A stretch of 64,000 nucleotides of DNA from an uncultured Candidatus Binatia bacterium (GTDB lineage Bacteria > Desulfobacterota > Binatia > UBA9968 > JAJDTQ01). The translations under genes and the position numbers were made by a program. Numbering within the stretch: the stretch's first letter is position 1; each line of letters opens with the position of its first letter. The stretch spans positions 3,808,001 through 3,872,000 of the forward strand of contig OZ244070.1 in assembly GCA_965215605.1 (NCBI GenBank), given 5' to 3'. Positions 16,580 through 63,088 of the stretch are shown in pieces. The notes under the pieces are model-generated. The model worked only from the letters and a program-made list of their open reading frames with translations, was not told where the DNA came from and did not search any database.

Positions 16580-16666
16580 AACCGGACGATTTCCATCCGG
16601 GACCGAAGGTGGTAGTTTTGCCGTGTCGAAAGCATGTGCACGAAAACACCGTCAAGGGAGAAGAAC

Positions 16667-17689
16667 ATGGGGAAAATCGACTCGGCATTCAAGGTCATCG
16701 ACGCTGACGCCCACGCACGGGACAACGACGAGTTCGTCAAGCCGTTCCTCGGCGAGGCCTTTCAGAACCGCCGGCCGCCGTTCATTCCGAGAGAGACCTA
16801 CGACCGCAACCTCGGCGGCACCTTGGGGCACGCGGGCATCAAGCACGAGGAACGGCTCTCCGCCATGGACACCCAGGAGATCCATACCGCGGTCATGTAC
16901 CCCACCAGCGGGCTGGGCATCGGCCGCATCCGCGAACCCGGCTACCAGACCCAGTTGTGCCGCGCCTACAACGAGTTCATCGCCGACTACTGCAAGGCTT
17001 CGCCGCGACTCAAGGCCGTGGCGAACCTGCCGGTCAACGCTCCGGAGGCGGCGGCCGGGGAGTTGCGCTACGCGGTCACCGAGCTGGGACTGGTGGGAGG
17101 CATGCTGGCGGCCCAGGGGCATGGAAAGAACTTCGGCTCACCGGAGTATTTTCCGCTCTACGAGGAAGCGCAGAAGATCGGGACGCCGCTGGCGATCCAC
17201 GCCTTCGGCGGCGACGAGCCCGGCAGCGAGATCTTCGACCAGTTCATCGCCATCCACACCACCGGCCACCCGTTTCCGGTATTGCGCCAGCTCACGGGCA
17301 TGGTCTTCGCCGGCGTTCCGGAGCTGTTTCCCGACCTGAAGCTCGGCTTTCTCGAGATCGGCTGCGGCTGGATCCCCTACTGGTCGGACCGGATGGACGA
17401 GGAGTGGGAAAAACGCGGCGCCGTGGAAGCCCCCGAGTGCAAGCAGGAGCCCAGCCACTACATCACCAGCAAGAACGTGTACTACGGCTGCGAGCCTGAC
17501 GAGAAGACCATCGGCTACGTGGTGGGGGAGATCGGCTCCGAGACCATCATGTATGCGTCGGACTATCCTCATTGGGACATGAGCTGGCCGGAATCGGGCT
17601 CGTTGATCTGGTCGCGGGACGACCTCTCGCGGGAGGCCAAGCAGAACATCCTGGGAGACAACGCCCGGCGCTTCTACGGACTCGACTGA
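16667..17689 (+). CDS. Amidohydrolase_2 family protein (ACMSD/LigJ-like)
   Basis: IDADAH, LAIH, FLEIGCGWIP, MYASDYPHWD, ILGDNARRFY. Confidence 0.88.
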   Translation: MGKIDSAFKVIDADAHARDNDEFVKPFLGEAFQNRRPPFIPRETYDRNLGGTLGHAGIKHEERLSAMDTQEIHTAVMYPTSGLGIGRIREPGYQTQLCRAYNEFIADYCKASPRLKAVANLPVNAPEAAAGELRYAVTELGLVGGMLAAQGHGKNFGSPEYFPLYEEAQKIGTPLAIHAFGGDEPGSEIFDQFIAIHTTGHPFPVLRQLTGMVFAGVPELFPDLKLGFLEIGCGWIPYWSDRMDEEWEKRGAVEAPECKQEPSHYITSKNVYYGCEPDEKTIGYVVGEIGSETIMYASDYPHWDMSWPESGSLIWSRDDLSREAKQNILGDNARRFYGLD

Positions 17690-17854
17690 GGGTCCGCCCC
17701 CAGGCGCCGGAGCGTCGCACCGGTTGCCATCCGTCCGGCTTTCAAGTAACTAGTTTGACTTCGTTGGAGGAAGCCCGCCCGTTCCCGCCGGTGCCGCATG
17801 CGGCACCGGGAAGCGGTGGCCTTCAACGAAAATACACGTGTTTCAGGAGTTTCG

Positions 17855-18604
17855 ATGCCTCTTTCCGGCGATGCTTTTGTACAGGAGATTCACGACACGG
17901 TTCGCGCCAAGCACTCCAAGGACAACCCTCTGATCGGGATGATCGAAAGGGGCGAGATCGACCGGGAGGCGCTCAAGGGATTCGTGGGGCAGTTCTATCT
18001 TTTCTTCCCCAAGCCCTTTCCCAAGCCCATCGCGGCCATGCTGGGACGCTGTCCCGAGGACGCCGAGCTGGAGCGGATGTGGATCGAGAACGTGGTGGAG
18101 GAGGGTACCGGGGAGATCTCCGGCACCGACAGCCACCGCGGCCTCTTCATCCGTTTCGCCATGAGCTGCGGCTACGCTTCCAAGGAGGAGTTGGACGCGG
18201 TACAGGCCCTGCCCGAGACCTCGGCGTTCCTCGACTGGCGCGATCTGCTCATGTACCAACGCTCGTGGCTGGAGCTCTACGCCTGCCAGGGGTTCTGCCT
18301 TGAAGGCACCGCCAGCGAGCGCATGAGCCGCATCGTCACCGGACTGACCACGCACTACGGCTTCGACCGGGAAAGCGACGACATCCGCTACTGGACGCTG
18401 CACATGGGCGTGGACGAAGAGCACATGAAGGTGGGCCCGTTGGCCGTGAGCAGATACGCGGTCACCGACCAGCAGCAGGACCAGGTGCGCCAGTCGGTGC
18501 AGAAGACCCTGGACCAGTTCTGGCTGGCTTTCGACGGCATCAAGAGAGCCTTCGTCGACAAGGACCCCATCTACGCCGGTTGGCGCAACGGGGGCGCGGC
18601 CTGA
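17855..18604 (+). CDS. Heme-oxygenase-like diiron oxidase (PqqC/CADD/TenA superfamily)
   Basis: ENVVEE...SH, LEG, YWTLHMGVDEEH supply the E/H/E/H-xxx-D-xx-H diiron ligand set; RBS AGGAG. Confidence 0.8.
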   Translation: MPLSGDAFVQEIHDTVRAKHSKDNPLIGMIERGEIDREALKGFVGQFYLFFPKPFPKPIAAMLGRCPEDAELERMWIENVVEEGTGEISGTDSHRGLFIRFAMSCGYASKEELDAVQALPETSAFLDWRDLLMYQRSWLELYACQGFCLEGTASERMSRIVTGLTTHYGFDRESDDIRYWTLHMGVDEEHMKVGPLAVSRYAVTDQQQDQVRQSVQKTLDQFWLAFDGIKRAFVDKDPIYAGWRNGGAA

Positions 18605-18642
18605 GCCGGCGGCAGGCGCCCAACCCCTCAGGAAACACGACC

Positions 18643-19293
18643 ATGTCCATGATCGATCTCTCGCGGATAATCTATGACGGCATGCCCAAGATCCCGGCGC
18701 TGCCTGACGTGCACGTGCAGCGATTTTTCGATCTCGGCAAGGGCCACCCGCTCAACGTCACCGAGATCAACCTGCCGTGTCATGCCGGGACCCACGTGGA
18801 CGCGCCGGTCCACATCATGCCCGACGGCAAGTCCATCGAGGAGCTGTCGCTCGACGCCTTCGTCGGTCCGGGCGCGGTGATCTCCGTGGAGAAGGGCGGG
18901 GGAGAGGAAGTCACCGCGGCGGATCTCCAGGGCTCGGGGGTTGTGGTGGAGCGGGGCGACGTGCTGATGCTGCATACCGGATGGGACGAGAAGTTCGAAA
19001 GCGAAGAATACAATATGCACCCCTATCTCTCCGTCGACGCGGCGGAATGGATCGTGGAGCGCGGAGTGAAGCTGTTCGGGATCGACTGCATCACGGTGGA
19101 CCTGCCCACGCCGTTGCGGCCCAAGGGGTTCGACTTCCCGGTACACCGGACTCTCCTGGGCAACGACGTGCTGATCGCCGAGAACGTAACCAATCTCGCC
19201 GCCATTGCTGGACGCAAAAGCCGCATCATGGCGCTACCCCTCAAGGTGCAGGGGAGCGACGCGGCCCACGCCAGAATCGTCGCCGAGGTCTGA
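18643..19293 (+). CDS. Cyclase family metallohydrolase (kynurenine formamidase-like)
   Basis: IDLS, HAGTHVDAPVH, HTGWD, FGIDCITVD, VHRTLLGNDVLIAEN. Confidence 0.9.
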   Translation: MSMIDLSRIIYDGMPKIPALPDVHVQRFFDLGKGHPLNVTEINLPCHAGTHVDAPVHIMPDGKSIEELSLDAFVGPGAVISVEKGGGEEVTAADLQGSGVVVERGDVLMLHTGWDEKFESEEYNMHPYLSVDAAEWIVERGVKLFGIDCITVDLPTPLRPKGFDFPVHRTLLGNDVLIAENVTNLAAIAGRKSRIMALPLKVQGSDAAHARIVAEV

Positions 19294-19306
19294 GCGAGGT
19301 CAAGGC

Positions 19307-20272
19307 ATGCTGGCAAGCCCCATCAGAGGAATTATCGGAGCTGCGCTGACCCCGTTCACGGACGACGGGAAGGTGGACTATGACGCCTTGGCGCGACAGA
19401 TCGAATTTCTCGTAGCCGACTGCGACGCCATCTCCGTGGCCGCGGTCGAAGCCTCGGAGTACACGGTCCTCTCCCTCCAGGACCGGAAAGAGGTCATGCG
19501 GCGCGCCACCGAGATCGTCAACAAGCGCGTGCCGGTCATTCTCGGGGCGTCGAGCCATTCCATCGACACGATCCTCGACCTCGCGGATCATGCCGCCGCC
19601 GTGGGCGGCGACCTCATCCAGGTGCTGATGCCCATCCGTCCGTGGGGCGGGCAGCCCACCATCGCGGATCTGGTACAGTTCTTCACCGAGGTGGCGTCGG
19701 TGAGCCCGTTGCCCATCGTCGCCTATCACAACCCCGGTCCCGGCGCCGACCCACCGCTGGACGCCTTCGTACGGCTCAGCGAGATCGAAAAAGTCGACTA
19801 CTTCAAGGAGAGCTCGCGTGACATCACCAAGATCACGCGCCTCATCGAGCAGATTCAACTGGCCGGCAAGGCCAACTACTTCACCACCATGCAGCCGTTG
19901 CTGACGACGCTCATGATGGGAGGCGCGGGCGCCACCATGCCGCCGCCGGGCACGCGCATCGGCGCCAGGGTGGTCCGCGCGTTCCGGGACGGCGACACCG
20001 ACAAGGCGCGCTACTGGCAGCGCTGCTTTACGCTCTTCCCGGGGAAGTGGGGCGCCTACGGACTGCCGCCGATCATGAAATCCGCCCTGAAGCACTTCGG
20101 GGTCGACATCGGCGACCCAGCCCGGCCCTATTCGCCCGTGAGTCCCCGGGACCACGCCCAGATCGGGCAGTTCCTGGGCCAGATCGGCATCCTGGGCGAT
20201 GGCGAGCCCGACGAAGCCACGTTCGACGAGGCCGCCATCCAGCTTGCCCAGGAAGACACCTTCCTTCGCTAG
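19307..20272 (+). CDS. DHDPS/N-acetylneuraminate lyase family Schiff-base aldolase, atypical
   Basis: TPFTDDGKVDY, PVILG, AYHNP, KESS. The usual GTTGE is replaced by AVEASE. Confidence 0.82.
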   Translation: MLASPIRGIIGAALTPFTDDGKVDYDALARQIEFLVADCDAISVAAVEASEYTVLSLQDRKEVMRRATEIVNKRVPVILGASSHSIDTILDLADHAAAVGGDLIQVLMPIRPWGGQPTIADLVQFFTEVASVSPLPIVAYHNPGPGADPPLDAFVRLSEIEKVDYFKESSRDITKITRLIEQIQLAGKANYFTTMQPLLTTLMMGGAGATMPPPGTRIGARVVRAFRDGDTDKARYWQRCFTLFPGKWGAYGLPPIMKSALKHFGVDIGDPARPYSPVSPRDHAQIGQFLGQIGILGDGEPDEATFDEAAIQLAQEDTFLR

Positions 20273-20300
20273 TCCGGATTACGGGAAACGGAAGACACCC

Positions 20301-20510
20301 ATGTCCGGCGGCCTCTTCACCTGGATTACGGAACAGATCAAGACTTGGTCCGACTTTCTGGTGTTGCGCCTCATCCGCGGCACTTCGCGGTTCGAGTCGG
20401 AACTGACCGAGGAAGGCCGCCAGGAACAGCGCATGTGGCGGGACCGGCGCATGCGCAACCTGAAGGGCCTCGCGATTCGAGCCAGGCGGCGGCAGCAACA
20501 GAACTCCTGA
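20301..20510 (+). CDS. Small (69 aa) hypothetical protein, Arg-rich C-terminus
   Basis: MSGGLFTWITEQIKTWSDFLVLRLIRG...; fills the gap between the aldolase and SQR genes and ends 10 nt before the SQR ATG. Confidence 0.55.
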   Translation: MSGGLFTWITEQIKTWSDFLVLRLIRGTSRFESELTEEGRQEQRMWRDRRMRNLKGLAIRARRRQQQNS

Positions 20511-20520
20511 CGGTCACGAA

Positions 20521-21678
20521 ATGCACTACCACAACGAACGCAAGCAGATTGTGGTGCTGGGCGGCGGCAGCGGCGGAGTCGTGGCCGCCACCAAGCTCGG
20601 CCGCGCCCTCGGAGCGGATCACGACGTGACCCTCATCGACCGCCGGGCCGATCACGTCTACATGCCCGCGTTCCTGTTCGTGATGGTCGGACAGCGGCGG
20701 CCCGAGGACATCACGCGAAAGCTCAAGCGCCTGGAGAAGCGCAACATCCGGGTGCTTCAGGCGGAGATCCTCGGCATCGACGCCGGCCGCCAGCAGGTCA
20801 TCCTCGAAAGCACCGCCATCCCGTACGATTACCTGATCGTTTCCCTGGGCCTCGAGGTCAGGCCCGACCTGCTGCCCGGCTTCGCCGAGGGGGCGCAACA
20901 TTCATGGGAGATGGACGCGGCCGTGCGTCTCAGGACCACCCTCGACAGTTTCCGCGAGGGGCGCGTGCTGGTGGGCATCCCGCAGGGACCGTACCGTTGC
21001 CCGCCGGCTCCCTATGAGGCCCAGTGGATGCTGGACAGCTACTTCAAGGGACGGACCATCCGCGACTTGGTGGACCTCCAGTACTTCACCCGGGAACCCG
21101 AGCCGGCGGGCGACGAGTACATGCCTTCGGTGTGGATGGACGCACAAAGCAAGAAGCGCAATGTCACCATCCACTACGACTTCGTCGTGCAGTCCATCGA
21201 TGCGGAAAAGAGACGCGTCAAGGGCCTCTACGGCTACGAGTTGTCCTACGACCTGCTGATGATGGTACCGCCACACCGGCCCTCTCAAGTGCTCTACGAC
21301 TGCGGCCTGGCAGAGAAAGAGAACGGCATACGGGTGGACTACGACACCCTGGAGACCAAGTGGGAGAATGTCTACGCCATCGGCGACTGCGCCGACATGC
21401 CCGCCTCCAAGGCCGGCGGCGTGGCGCACCAGGAAGCCGACGTGGTGGCGGACAACCTGGCGGCGGAGATCACGGGGGAAGGGGAGCTATCCACCCTTCA
21501 CCTGCACACCATATGACTGCTTTCTTGCGGCGCGGGACGCGCCGCCGCCAACCGCACCACGTACCCCCAGGGATGGCCGCCTTTCGGCGCCACCGACTCA
21601 CGCTCCTGGGGGCCGTCCCAGATGATCTACTGGAGCAAGGTCCTGTTCGAGAAATGGTGGCTCTGGCGTTACTTTTAG
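20521..21678 (+). CDS. sqr: Sulfide:quinone oxidoreductase-like (type III/FCSD-related) flavoprotein, probable selenoprotein (Sec332, TGA at 21514-21516), 385 aa
   Basis: GGGSGG FAD motif, YRCPPAPYE (Cys160), YAIGD, KAG. The frame stays open past the TGA: ULLSCGAGRAAANRTTYPQGWPPFGATDSRSWGPSQMIYWSKVLFEKWWLWRYF, then TAG at 21676-21678. Confidence 0.85.
21517..21545 (+). promoter_or_regulatory. Candidate bacterial SECIS element
   Basis: Perfect 8-bp stem GCGGCGCG (21527-34) / CGCGCCGC (21538-45) with a G-first loop GGA, beginning 10 nt after the UGA; the loop is 18 nt from the UGA. Confidence 0.7.
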
Positions 21679-21705: not shown

Positions 21706-22743
21706 ATGATCCTCCGCGAGCTCAACGGCGGAAGCTGCAAGACCTACCTGATAGCCGACGAGGGCAGGGGACACGCGGTGCTGGTGGACCCGCTCTACGC
21801 CCACGTGGAGCGGTATATTGCCGTACTCGCCTACCATCGCCTCAAGCTGGACATGGTCATTGACACCCACACCCACGCCGACCATCTAAGCGCGTGCCCC
21901 CAACTTCGATTCCTTCTGGGTCCGCCGTTCGCGATGCAGAAGTGGGCGCCCAGCCCGGCCGTGGACAAGCATCTGGAAGAGGGCGAGGAAATCCCCGTCG
22001 GCGATCTTGTCGTGCGGGTTCTCCATACTCCCGGACACACGCCCGACGGCATGAGCCTGCTGGTGGAAGGGAACGTCCTGACCGGCGACACCTTGTTCAT
22101 CGGCGGCTCGGGACGCACCGACTTCGCCGGCGGCGACGCCGGCGCACAGTACGATGCCGTCACGGGAAAGCTCTTCACGCTCCCGGACGATACCGTCGTC
22201 CGTCCCGGCCACGACTACCGCGGCAACACCGCCTCCACCATCGGCCGCGAAAAAGAAACCAATCCGCGGCTCGCCAACCGCAGCCGTCAGGACTACATCG
22301 ACCTCATGAACAACCTCCAGCTCTCTCCGCCCCAGAACATCCAGGAGGTCCTCCAACCCAATCAGTCCGCCATCAGCAACGAGGAGATCAGTTTTCCCGA
22401 CTGGAGCGAGCTCAAGAAGGTCCGGGAAATCGACGTCCAGGCGCTTCGGCGAATGCTCGATTCCGACGCCCGGCCGCTACTGGTGGACGTTCGCGAACCC
22501 GGCGAGTACTCGGGCGAGCTCGGCCACCTGGCGGGAAGCGTACTGATTCCCCTCCGGGAGCTCATGAACCGCGTAACCGAAATCGCCGAGCACAAGAAAA
22601 CTCCGGTGGTCACCATCTGCCGCGCCGGGATGCGCAGCGCCACCGCCGCGGCGATCCTCGGCAGGTCCGGCTTCAACGACGTCTCCAATCTCGCCGGCGG
22701 CCTGCTGGCGTGGAACGAGGCGCGCCTGCCGGTGGAACGTTAG
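21706..22743 (+). CDS. Persulfide dioxygenase (ETHE1-like MBL fold)-rhodanese fusion
   Basis: DTHTHADH, HTPGHT, TGDTLFIGGSGRTDF, PGHDY..STIGREK.NPR; C-terminal rhodanese DVREP, CRAGMRS, LAGGLLAW. Confidence 0.9.
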   Translation: MILRELNGGSCKTYLIADEGRGHAVLVDPLYAHVERYIAVLAYHRLKLDMVIDTHTHADHLSACPQLRFLLGPPFAMQKWAPSPAVDKHLEEGEEIPVGDLVVRVLHTPGHTPDGMSLLVEGNVLTGDTLFIGGSGRTDFAGGDAGAQYDAVTGKLFTLPDDTVVRPGHDYRGNTASTIGREKETNPRLANRSRQDYIDLMNNLQLSPPQNIQEVLQPNQSAISNEEISFPDWSELKKVREIDVQALRRMLDSDARPLLVDVREPGEYSGELGHLAGSVLIPLRELMNRVTEIAEHKKTPVVTICRAGMRSATAAAILGRSGFNDVSNLAGGLLAWNEARLPVER

Positions 22744-37870: not shown

Positions 37871-39664
37871 TCAGACCTTCAGCGCCGCCAGGAAGGCCTC
37901 CTGGGGTATCTCCACCCGTCCCACCGACTTCATGCGCTTCTTGCCTTCTTTCTGCCGCTCCAGGAGCTTCCGCTTGCGGGTGATGTCGCCGCCGTAGCAC
38001 TTGGCGGTGACGTTCTTGCGGAGCGCCTTCACCGACTCCCGGGCGATGATGCGGCTGCCGATGGCCGCCTGGATCACCACCTCGAACATCTGCCGCGGGA
38101 TCAGCTCCCGCATGCGCTGCACCAGGTCCCGGCCGCGCCCGTACGCCTTGTCGCGATGGACGATCAGCGACATGGCGTCCACCAGGTCGCCATTGATGCG
38201 GACGTCCAGCTTGACCAGCTTCGACGGCCGCATGCCCGCCAACTCGTAGTCCATGGACGCGTAGCCCCGGCTCAGGGACTTGAGCTTGTCGTAGAAGTCG
38301 AACACGATCTCGTTCAGCGGCAGCTCGTAGGTGACCATGGCGCGGTTGAGGCCCGCGTAGCGCAGCTCCCGCTGAATGCCGCGCTTTTCCTCGCACAGCT
38401 TGAGCACGCCCCCGAGGTAGCTCTGGGGAAGGTGGATGGTGGCCAGGATGATGGGCTCCTCGATGGTCTCGACGTCGGCCTCGTTGGGAAAGGCCACCGG
38501 ATTGTCGATGGCCAGAACCTCTCCCCCGTGGGTGGTGACCCGATAGACCACGGTGGGAGCCGTGTTGATGAGGGCAAGGTCGAACTCCCGCTCCACCCGC
38601 TCGCGCACGATATCGAGGTGCAGCAGGCCCAGAAACCCGCAACGAAAGCCGAAACCCAGGGCCTGGGAGCTCTCCGGCTCGAAGGTGAAGGAGGAGTCGT
38701 TCAGGCTCAGTTTCTCGAGCGCCGTCCGGAGCGCCTGATACTGGCCCGAGTCCGCCGGGTAGAGGCCGCTGAACACCACCGGCTTGAGCGGACGGAAGCC
38801 TTCCAACGGCTGGCCGGTGGGACGCTTGTGGCCGGTGACGGTATCGCCGATGCGGGCCTCGTGGATGTTCTTGATGGAGGCCATGAGAAAGCCCACCTCG
38901 CCCGGACCGAGGCTCCCCACCTCCACCGGCCCGGGAGCGAAGACGCCCAGGCGGTTCACCTCGAACACGCCGCCGGTGGACATGAGGCGGATGGCGTCGC
39001 CGGTGCGGACGTTCCCTTCGAAGACCCGCAGCAGGATCACCGCGCCGTGATAGGGGTCGAACCAGCTATCGAAGATGAGGCCCCTCAGGGGCGCCTCCGG
39101 CCCGCCCCCGGGCGGCGGGAAGTTGGCGATGATGCCCTCCAGCACGGCCTCGGTGCCGATGCCCTTCTTGGCGCTGGCGAGGATGGCCTGGGAGCCGTCC
39201 AGACCGATGATGTCCTCGATCTCCCGCTTGACCCGATCGGGGTCCGCGCTGGGCAGATCGATCTTGTTGATGACCGGGAACACATGGAGGTCGTGGTCCA
39301 GCGCCAGATAGACGTTGGCCACCGTCTGCGCCTCCACACCCTGGGCGGCGTCCACCACCAGGATCGCTCCTTCGCAGGCCGCGAGGCTCCGGGAGACTTC
39401 GTAGCTGAAATCCACGTGGCCGGGCGTATCGATGAGGTTCAGGATGTAGTCATCGCCGGCGGCGGACCGGTAATCGAGGCGGACCGGACTGGCCTTGATG
39501 GTGATGCCGCGCTCGCGTTCAAGCTCCATCTTGTCCAGGAACTGGTCGGTCTTCTCGCGCTCGCTGAGCGCGCCGGTGCACTCCAGCAACCGGTCCGCGA
39601 GCGTGGATTTGCCGTGATCGATATGGGCGATGATGCAGAAGTTCCGGATCCGGGCGCTATCCAC
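37871..39664 (-). CDS. lepA: Elongation factor 4
   Basis: [45 protein letters not shown]. Confidence 0.98.
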
Positions 39665-61007: not shown

Positions 61008-63088
61008 CTAGTCTCCGGCCGCCTCGGCCTTGGCCTCGGCCTGCACCTTCTCCATCAGGTGCGCCGGCATCTCTTCGTAGTGCGAGAACTCGGACTGGAA
61101 CTCACCCCGGCCGCTGGTCATGGAACGGAGGTCGGAGGCGTACTGAAGCACCTCCGCCATGGGCACCTGGGCCTTGATGGTCTGGCCGTTGCCCTTGGCG
61201 TCCACGCCCAGGACTTTGCCCCGCCGGCTGTTCAGATCGCCGATGACATCTCCCATGCAATCGTCGGGCACCGACACCTCCAGGGACATCACCGGTTCCA
61301 GGATCACCGGCTTGGCGCCCTCCATGGCGTTCTTGAAGCCCATGGATGCGGCGATCTTGAACGCCATGTCCGACGAGTCCACGGTATGGAAGGAACCGTC
61401 ATACAGCGTGGCGCGCACGTCCATGATCGGATAGCCGGCCAGGTAACCGTTGGACATGGTTTCGACGATGCCCTTTTCCACCGCGGGGATGTAGTTCCGC
61501 GGGATGGCGCCGCCAACGATCTTGTCCACGAACTCGAAGCCCTTGCCCCGCGGCAGGGGCTCGAGCTTGAGCCAGGTGTCGCCGAACTGGCCCCGGCCTC
61601 CGGACTGTTTCTTGTACTTCCCCTGGGCGCTGGCGGCCGCCCGGATGGTTTCCCGATAGGGCACCTTGGGCGCCTTGAGCTCCACCTCCGCGCCGTATTT
61701 CCGCTTGAGCTTGTCCACCACCACCTCGATGTGGAGCTGACCTGTACCCGACAGGATGAACTCCCGGGTCTGCTCGTCCCGGTGCATCCGGATCGAAGGG
61801 TCCTCCTCCATCATCCGCTGGAGCCCCTGGGGCACCTTGTCCTCGTCCGCACGGGTCTTGGGGGACAGCGCGAAGGAGATGGACGGGTTGAACTCCATGG
61901 GCCTGGGATACTCGATGGGGGCCGACTCGCTGCAAAGCGTATCTCCGGACCTGACGTCCTTCAGCTTGGCGGCGGCGACGATCTCGCCCACCCCCGCCTC
62001 CGACACCTCCTCGTGCTTGCCGCCCTCCGGCCGGAACAGGTGGGTGATCTTCTCCTTGGCCTCCTTGCCGGTGTTGTAGACCGTGCTGTCGGCCTTCACG
62101 GTGCCCGACAGCACCCTCATGATGGAAAGCCGGCCGGCGAAGGGATCCACGATGGTCTTGAACACGAAGGCTGAAAGCGGCTCGTCCGGGCTCTTGGAGC
62201 GGGTCTCGGGCTCCCCGGTCACCGGTTCTTTCCCTGAGCCGCCGGCTCCTCCAGCGGCGAGGGCAGCCATTCCACCACGGCGTCGAGCAAGGCCGGAACG
62301 CCGGCGGCGCGGGTGGCCGCACCGTAAAGGACGGGAAAGAGCGTGCCCGCGCGGACCCCGTCGCGCAGGCCTTCCGAGAGCTCCTCCGAGGTCAGCTCCT
62401 GGCCATCGAGGTACTTCTCCAGCAGGGCGTCCTGGGTTTCGGCCACGTTCTCCATGAGATTGACTCTCATTTTCTCCGCCCGTTCCTGAAGCTCCGCCGG
62501 TATGGCCTCCTCGGTCTCCTTGCCGTCCGCGTCCGCGCACACCGCCTTCATGCGGATCAGGTCGACGACCCCGCGGAAACCCTCGCCGTGGCCGATGGGA
62601 AGCTGCGCGTGGATCCCCTTGACGTCCAGGGCCGCCGCGATGGTGTCCACCGCTTCCACCGGGTCCGCCTCCTCCCGATCCATGCGGTTGACGAAGAACA
62701 TGCGGGGCAACCCGCGCTCCGCCGCGTAGCCCCAGAGCCGCTCCGTCTCCACCCTCAGGCCGGCGCCGGCGTGCAGTACGAAGACGGCGCCGCCGAAACT
62801 CGCCAGCGAATGGACCGTCTCCGGCAGAAACGTGGCGAAGCCCGGCGTGTCCACCAGAACGCAGGCCGTCTTGTTCCATTCCAGGGGATGAAAGGCCGCG
62901 GAGATGGAGACCTGGCGGTTGATTTCCTCGGGCTCGTGGTCGAACGCCGAAGTCCCGTCCTCTACCCGGCCCAGCCGGTTCGTCCGGCCCGCCGCGAACA
63001 GCATCGCCTCGCCCAGGGAGGTCTTTCCCGCGCCCCGGTGTCCAAGCAATCCGACGTTCCTCAAACGGGCAGCTTCAATTGCAGCCAT
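61008..63088 (-). CDS. fusA: Elongation factor G paralog (EF-G2-like), split by a -1 frameshift at ~62228-62234
   Basis: The G domain (GHRGAGKT, DTPGF, NRMD) is in ORF 62219..63088 and domains II-V (GQLH, KKQSGGRGQFG, DGSFHTVDSS, LEPV) are in the -1 frame. Joined length is about 693 aa. Confidence 0.9.

Follow-up and report, generated by a model that had tools for sequence, protein, structure and literature searches.

A UGA-interrupted gene of the sulfide:quinone oxidoreductase family in a Candidatus Binatia bacterium probably encodes a selenoprotein

The stretch of DNA analyzed here (the window) comprises 64,000 nucleotides of an uncultured Candidatus Binatia bacterium (positions 3,808,001 to 3,872,000 of contig OZ244070.1, assembly GCA_965215605.1), and the subject is a gene for a flavoprotein of the sulfide:quinone oxidoreductase (SQR) family that is interrupted by an in-frame TGA. 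The reading frame opens with the ATG at 20521 and reaches the TGA, codon 332, at 21514-21516; 53 further open codons follow before the TAG at 21676-21678, and 27 nt separate this TAG from the ATG of the downstream gene at 21706. All of these boundaries agree with those given in an earlier reading of the same DNA made without database searches (the sequence-only reading). The protein carries the Pfam domains Pyr_redox_2 (PF07992) and FCSD_central (PF21706). Cys160 lies within the motif CPPAPYE, the part gained by read-through carries the motifs CxxxxGxxxA and FEKxW, and Cys336 stands four residues past codon 332. A six-frame search of genome G000 with the SQR gene as query gave no second homolog. 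The gene very probably encodes a real selenoprotein of the SQR type, in which the UGA is decoded as selenocysteine (Sec332) under the direction of a downstream hairpin, and which forms an independent, type III-like lineage (the label 'type III' of the window protein is taken from the name of an NCBIfam model alone). The features of the locus are listed in Table 1.

Table 1. Features of the SQR locus (positions within the window; counts refer to 77 related loci)
Feature	Position	Strand	Evidence and remarks
SQR-family coding sequence, probable selenoprotein, 385 residues plus TAG	20521..21678	+	Frame, Pfam, NCBIfam, orthologs, fold
Codon of Cys160, partner redox Cys (CPPAPYE)	20998..21000	+	Invariant column; aligns with the 'KCAGAP' Cys of human SQOR
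UGA, probable Sec332 codon	21514..21516	+	TGA conservation, Cys column, alignment with the C-terminal catalytic Cys of human SQOR
53-codon extension past the UGA	21517..21675	+	Rest of strand 329-337, strands 340-347 and 359-366, C-terminal helix
Hairpin of the bacterial selenocysteine insertion type	21527..21545	+	8-bp stem and GGA loop in the window genome; 6-bp conserved core
Predicted C-terminal amphipathic helix, residues 367-384 (K..FEKWWLWRYF)	21619..21672	+	Structure model, K..FE..W conservation
Haem-oxygenase-like iron enzyme	17798-18604	+	PF14518; weak NCBIfam CADD/PqqC match; 55/77 loci
Cyclase/arylformamidase-like gene	18580-19293	+	PF04199; weak NCBIfam arylformamidase match; 60/77 loci
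DHDPS-family (class I aldolase-like) gene	19205..20272	+	PF00701; upstream in 72/77 loci, most conserved neighbour
Small open reading frame, ~70 aa	20301..20510	+	tblastn matches in 71/77 loci; directly upstream of the SQR gene
MBL-fold persulfide-dioxygenase-like domain fused to rhodanese	21706..22743	+	PF00753, PF00581; NCBIfam Blh-like below cut-off

Conservation of the TGA was surveyed by a six-frame search of 41 related genomes representing 10 genera and three families of one order. An ortholog covering the site was present in 36 of them, with identities of 66-97%; all 36 contain exactly one in-frame TGA, and in all 36 the similarity runs on to residue 385. Among the 41 genomes no site-covering ortholog was found in G017, G018, G026 and G040, and G038 yielded an N-terminal fragment only. 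Regarding the genome-derived loci (L021-L131), a search pattern placed TGA at codon 332 in 106 of 111; L088, which reads IHTI and lies outside the pattern, also has TGA by direct view, and the contig matches of L114, L120, L129 and L131 stop short of the site and are uninformative at codon 332. Further metagenome loci fitted the pattern in 78 of 80 cases, with TGA in 78 of 78. When all loci with enough flank were pooled, TGA was present in 183 (156 unique 765-nt segments) and a Cys codon in none. A Logan contig of run X2, which spans 21020-21555 with zero differences from the window, agrees with the TGA, for which the sequence-only reading had proposed a check in reads; the site is also spanned by Logan contigs of runs X5, X9 and X18, from which no claim about the TGA is drawn. 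The median ratio of nonsynonymous to synonymous differences (pN/pS, 65 distant pairs) was 0.22 in the 53-codon extension and 0.23 in the preceding 100 codons, and a conserved internal start codon is absent from the extension in the aligned loci, codon 36 past the TGA being L, M, A and others. Judged by this codon pattern, purifying selection is the same in the extension as before the UGA, and the extension is clearly translated.

The UGA falls on the second redox position of the family. In a phmmer alignment with human SQOR, Cys160 stands opposite the Cys of 'KCAGAP' and codon 332 opposite the Cys of 'TSC', so that Cys160 corresponds to human Cys201 and Sec332 to human Cys379; these two human residues are joined in a catalytic trisulfide according to the pertinent passages of PMC12589024. 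When 38 family members were aligned, the Cys160 column showed no variation, and at codon 332 a Cys was present in 33 of the 35 full-length relatives, the other two having Asn (P0011) and Ala (P0151); the match of U332 to the conserved Cys foreseen in the sequence-only reading is thereby borne out. The alternation of TGA and Cys foreseen there was found as well: a natural Cys form of the same clade, P0007 (68% identical, with one cluster member from a Binatia metagenome-assembled genome (MAG)), reads HTIC, and the hairpin is kept at synonymous sites in the TGA forms. P0011, also of the same clade (383 aa, 64% identical, from a Binatia MAG), reads H-D-L-N, with Asn at the Sec/Cys site; like P0151 with its Ala, it is without the second redox residue. 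The same reading had also pointed to an extra Cys four residues after the UGA (UxxxC). Cys336 is almost confined to the window's own genus, the position being F, Y, L, M or V elsewhere, and 'UxxxC' as a functional motif is ruled out.

An AlphaFold2 model built on the family alignment (predicted local distance difference test score (pLDDT) 93.9, predicted template modeling score 0.92) puts residue 332 inside a strand formed by residues 329-337, followed by strands 340-347 and 359-366 and by the helix 367-384. The extension has pLDDT values of 90-97 apart from one block at 70, and the helix values of 96-97. The best Foldseek matches were the SQRs of Acidithiobacillus ferrooxidans, Aquifex aeolicus and human (template modeling (TM) scores 0.84-0.85), followed by flavocytochrome c sulfide dehydrogenases and NDH-2; a comparison of the C-terminal 92 residues alone with the PDB gave no meaningful match. 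The K..FE..W motif of the C-terminal helix is conserved across the family alignment. The corresponding helix of human SQOR binds the membrane (PMC12589024, in the passages concerned), and by analogy helix 367-384 is likely a membrane or quinone-side anchor. In this model, a protein ending at the UGA would be broken off within a beta-strand and would lack two further strands and the C-terminal helix.

These results bear on the view that the TGA arose by nonsense mutation, or is an artifact of sequencing or assembly, leaving either a pseudogene or a functional 331-residue protein. Gene callers do stop at the TGA: in a database of 5.8 billion proteins, 109 of the 120 best matches are 329-332 aa long and end at the UGA, the truncation by annotation pipelines that the sequence-only reading had predicted. 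The same TGA is, however, present in 183 independent loci, the X2 contig is free of differences across it, purifying selection persists past it, and truncation is predicted by the model to break the fold as described above. The chance that an error or a shortened protein accounts for the locus is practically negligible, and a nonsense mutation or pseudogene, which the sequence-only reading had named as a possible refutation, is itself refuted by the retention of TGA in every site-covering ortholog seen.

Downstream of the UGA lies a hairpin of the bacterial selenocysteine insertion sequence (bSECIS) type, in which 21527-21534 pair perfectly with 21538-21545 around the loop GGA at 21535-21537 (-16.1 kcal/mol). 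The stem opens 10 nt past the TGA and the apical loop begins 17-18 nt past the UGA; the perfect stem and the G-first loop had already been noted from the sequence, and conservation at synonymous sites is added here. For bSECIS elements the relevant passages of PMC13188914 give a loop of 3-9 nt with G within the first two bases (typically N1-G-[G/U]-N-N2, where N1 pairs with N2), a stem of 4-16 bp, a distance of 16-37 nt between UGA and loop, and a minimum free energy of <= -7.5 kcal/mol. With its 8-bp stem, GGA loop closed by G-C, distance of 18 nt and energy of -16.1 kcal/mol, the window hairpin lies within four of these four constraints. Among 127 unique sequences the core pairs 21528-21533 / 21539-21544 are formed in 760 of 762 cells; 19 of the 21 core-stem changes are one-sided with a wobble pair retained, the outermost pair is formed in 28 of the 127 sequences and the loop-closing pair in 64. 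The conserved element is a 6-bp stem with a 5-nt N-GG-N-C loop. Regarding the 60 fourfold sites within 255 codons, the three of lowest entropy are the three third-codon positions of the stem (Arg+8 0.06, Gly+5 0.14 and Ala+9 0.44; next lowest 0.86; median 1.54), and the chance of three named sites being the lowest three of 60 is 1 in 34,220. At third positions that lie in the loop or immediately outside the stem, variation is free. The only peptide variant among the metagenome loci, Arg to Ser in L192 (CGC to AGC), keeps both stem bases. In the Cys form P0007 the presence of EPGK for GAGR would exclude three of the six core pairs under any codons, the absence of the hairpin being judged from the peptide and not from DNA; a metagenome scan for P0007 did not return its own contig, the best match having 76% identity.

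The machinery for selenocysteine is encoded on the contig that carries the window (C1, 3.96 Mb), as the sequence-only reading had required of selA, selB, selC and selD. Matches to selA (580 bits), selB (380 bits) and selD (374 bits) are clustered at C1:1.984-1.989 Mb, and a tRNA-Sec with 73 bits lies at C1:259405 (ARAGORN: SeC, anticodon TCA); the sel families and the tRNA-Sec are above cut-off. The three sel genes stand together, in the order selD, selB, selA, at C1:1984272-1988572, outside the window. One in-frame TGA is present in selD, so that the selenophosphate synthetase of the organism is also a selenoprotein, and the best candidate fold after the UGA of selD resembles the SQR hairpin, with a stem of 7 bp and a G-C pair closing the loop GUC. 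Of the 41 relatives, 39 have selA above cut-off, among them 36 of the 36 with the TGA gene; in G026, a genome without an ortholog, no selA was found. Weak matches to the selB model within the window, at 38948-39640 (-, 69 bits) and 62645-62953 (-, 24 bits), are far below cut-off and are probably ordinary translation GTPases, not selB.

Alternatively, a suppressor or near-cognate tRNA could place an ordinary residue (Cys, Trp or Gly) at the UGA, with no selenium involved. This is compatible with an extension that is clearly translated, whichever residue is inserted. Set against it are the full Sec machinery, which co-occurs with the gene, the conserved hairpin with its bSECIS position and loop, and a site that is a redox Cys, as is typical for replacement by Sec. 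In addition, 18 of 34 orthologs terminate the SQR gene at a second TGA, and because TGA is a true stop of the same gene there, it is not reassigned genome-wide. Recoding without selenium is accordingly very improbable. The core of the sequence-only reading, an SQR-like enzyme in which Sec replaces the second catalytic Cys, withstood every refutation that had been named for it.

Decoding of the UGA as Sec would proceed as follows. As the ribosome reaches the UGA, the GC hairpin would recruit SelB with Sec-tRNA(Sec); the ribosome would insert Sec332 and continue for 53 codons, giving a 385-residue, FAD-dependent, presumably membrane-associated flavoprotein of the SQR family. Sec332 and Cys160 would form the redox centre beside the FAD, most likely through a Se-S or Se-S-S bridge comparable with the trisulfide of the human enzyme. 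Sulfide would attack the Sec/Cys bridge, and the electrons would pass via the FAD to a quinone whose binding site is close to the C-terminal helix. If selenium ran short, termination at the UGA would leave a 331-residue fragment without part of the fold. A flavoprotein of the pyridine-nucleotide-disulfide oxidoreductase superfamily with a Sec/Cys redox pair is also known in mammalian thioredoxin reductase, the Sec of which sits in a flexible C-terminal tail, far from the flavin; Sec332 differs in that it would replace one of the two flavin-side catalytic Cys residues.

A Sec-containing type III SQR was published in 2025 in the deep-Sep paper (PMC12013277, in the part concerned) and is represented by the NCBIfam model NF049943; the selenoprotein list in a 2026 review (PMC13188914) includes SQR with the motif HxxU, citing that paper. 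The sequence-only reading did not count SQR among the commonly listed selenoprotein families, a view that is therefore out of date. The window protein shares the HxxU motif (H-T-I-U), NF049943 is its best-scoring named family, and both lineages are predicted selenoproteins. It differs in score, reaching 264.2 bits against a cut-off of 525 (248 bits for its clade relative P0007 and 226 bits for P0123), and in phylum (its relatives being labeled Candidatus Binatia) and gene neighbourhood. The cut-off was reached by 3 of 49 representatives scanned (P0163, P0147 and P0165). P0165 (525.3 bits) is a 330-aa call that ends after H-A-T, one column before the window Sec; it is 33% identical to the window protein, with Sec in the same alignment column. 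An exhaustive HMMER search gave the clade representative P0123 (59% identity, cut at 330 aa) and then relatives of at most 39% identity.

In a quick maximum-likelihood tree search with SH-aLRT support, P0165 groups with the Cys forms P0147, P0163 and P0173 (support 99) in one main branch, and the Binatia clade (support 100, stem 0.72) lies in the other; each of the two Sec lineages has Cys-form sisters. On these sequence comparisons, the Binatia clade falls outside NF049943 and constitutes an independent, much more widespread lineage with Sec at the same catalytic site. P0176, a singleton of 339 aa on a 1,780-nt contig, ends one column short of the catalytic Cys/Sec position, its sister being the full-length Cys form P0157 (support 99). 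From its position and its sister, P0176 may represent a third independent Sec lineage of SQR; a metagenome scan for P0176 found no relative. Full-text searches found no paper linking Binatia with selenocysteine, and the deep-Sep supplement may list further TGA-containing homologs; a search for Binatota with seleno returned nothing judged related from the listing, and one for selenoprotein or selenocysteine with sulfide quinone returned only PMC13188914 as relevant.

The Cys-type type III SQRs of Caldivirga maquilingensis, Sulfurimonas denitrificans and Methylacidiphilum fumariolicum (cited in PMC10205796) belong to the same broad family as the window protein by the NCBIfam name, resemble it in the two redox positions and the K..FE..W helix, and have Cys at both sites in place of the Cys/Sec pair; for members of this type, activity as sulfide:quinone oxidoreductases is established. 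Human SQOR, a type II enzyme (PDB 6oi5, 8dhk), is the best PDB sequence match (E 2.5e-30, TM 0.85); it differs in being mitochondrial and in having Cys at both sites, and identity is ~22%.

The neighbouring genes were counted in 77 related loci with a 3-kb flank, which limits the count for amidohydrolase_2, the small open reading frame being counted by tblastn. A same-strand cluster at 16634-20510 (+) precedes the SQR gene and begins with amidohydrolase_2 (28 of the 77 loci). The upstream genes and the SQR gene are on one strand with short gaps or overlaps, and the upstream cluster may define the real role of the SQR-type enzyme. No Pfam or NCBIfam family was found for the small open reading frame, which always adjoins the SQR gene on its upstream side and carries the conserved motif SD..TS.F..ELT..G..EQ..WR.QRLRNL.GL; in P0096, a 407-aa Joint Genome Institute (JGI) call, a hydrophobic N-terminal helix comes first and the small frame then continues in frame into the SQR call. 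SQRs are paired with persulfide dioxygenase and rhodanese in sulfide oxidation, and the fused gene 27 nt downstream would, by analogy, fit a sulfide-oxidation unit. This gene is present in 22 of the 77 loci: in 21 on the same strand downstream (70-96% identity), 20 of them directly after the SQR gene and L111 ~1.4 kb further, and in L124 on the opposite strand (58% identity).

A selenoprotein with the SQR fold could serve the conserved upstream cluster and not sulfide detoxification, for example in the redox chemistry of an organic persulfide or of some intermediate that carries sulfur or selenium, with electrons passing to quinone. The DHDPS-like gene (72/77) and the small open reading frame (71/77) are far more constant than the downstream persulfide dioxygenase-rhodanese gene (22/77), also in loci labeled Acidobacteriota; the small frame is joined in frame to the SQR call in P0096, the genes share one strand with short gaps or overlaps, and type III SQRs are the least-known group of the family in the account of PMC10205796, as far as its pertinent passages go. 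On the other side, the protein is of the SQR type in both catalytic positions, in its fold and in its C-terminal helix, the type III SQRs tested so far oxidize sulfide with quinone (cited in those passages of PMC10205796), the neighbours are without a known sulfur substrate, and synteny in related MAGs may be mere inheritance. A role tied to the upstream cluster alone is possible but distinctly the less likely interpretation.

Several points weigh against a hairpin-directed, sulfide-oxidizing selenoprotein. That Sec is inserted, that a selenosulfide takes part in the chemistry and that sulfide is the substrate are deductions, and selenium in the protein is not seen directly. The selA gene was not found in G038 (92% complete, 440 contigs), which has the N-terminal ortholog fragment. 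GC hairpins are common in this genome: among 40,000 sampled TGA triplets a loosely bSECIS-like hairpin follows 7.8% and one with at least 8 G-C pairs 0.17%, and a permissive scan gave 2,206 candidates of in-frame TGA plus hairpin and is unspecific. The hairpin by itself is unusual and not decisive; its conservation is what exceeds chance. The formal covariation test is uninformative, the stem hardly varying: double changes occur in two cells, and a score as high was reached by 99 of 500 shuffles. With hardly any compensatory changes and no significance in the shuffle control, the argument for the hairpin rests on the synonymous sites. Regarding the substrate, no characterized type III SQR structure or Sec-containing SQR was found in the literature, the persulfide dioxygenase-rhodanese gene occurs in only 22 of the 77 loci, and the conserved neighbours (72, 71, 60 and 55 of 77) are without a known link to sulfide. 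The assignment as an SQR-type selenoenzyme is made with high confidence and that of sulfide detoxification as its role with moderate confidence, because the conserved neighbours are the upstream genes and the persulfide dioxygenase-rhodanese gene is present in 22 of 77 loci only. A wider proposal, offered tentatively and regarded as rather doubtful, is that the catalytic C-terminal Cys of SQR became Sec repeatedly, in at least two lineages and perhaps three, that in Binatia this state is nearly fixed and tied to the upstream operon, and that the Binatia enzyme is a selenium-dependent quinone reductase whose substrate is other than free sulfide, or one by which sulfide or persulfide release from an unknown catabolic pathway is coupled directly to the respiratory chain.

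The selenoprotein interpretation has consequences for annotation. Related records are mostly from Candidatus Binatia MAGs, with some labeled Deltaproteobacteria, Thermodesulfobacteriota, Acidobacteriota and other phyla. Because the calls are cut at the UGA, inventories of sulfide oxidation and of selenium use in Binatia are wrong for the SQR gene, and the same error would apply to similar soil, groundwater and sponge bacteria; the NF049943 model would not rescue the Binatia gene (264 vs 525 bits). When residues 300-385 were used as query, the Cys form P0007 was the only cluster covering the extension. P0006 (398 aa, 92% identical to the window protein) crosses the UGA region out of frame and ends in an unrelated Arg-rich tail, which is a second way in which gene callers mishandle the SQR gene. 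The Sec-containing SQR as a kind was already known (2025, NF049943); new here is the separate and widespread Binatia lineage, in which the same catalytic Cys appears to have become Sec as in the other SQR lineage. P0007 and the Sec forms provide a natural Cys/Sec pair with which the benefit of selenium in a persulfide/trisulfide enzyme could be probed, and the conserved upstream cluster hints at an unknown pathway served by the SQR-type enzyme.

Some minor observations concern transcription and habitat. A contig from an RNA library over 21481-21636 gives a weak hint of transcription. Sponge-metagenome run X9 yielded a contig over 20400-21674 with 67 differences (~95% identity), and the marine metatranscriptome library X18 yielded contigs over 20951-21636, the UGA site included; together they hint weakly that relatives are transcribed in marine or sponge habitats.

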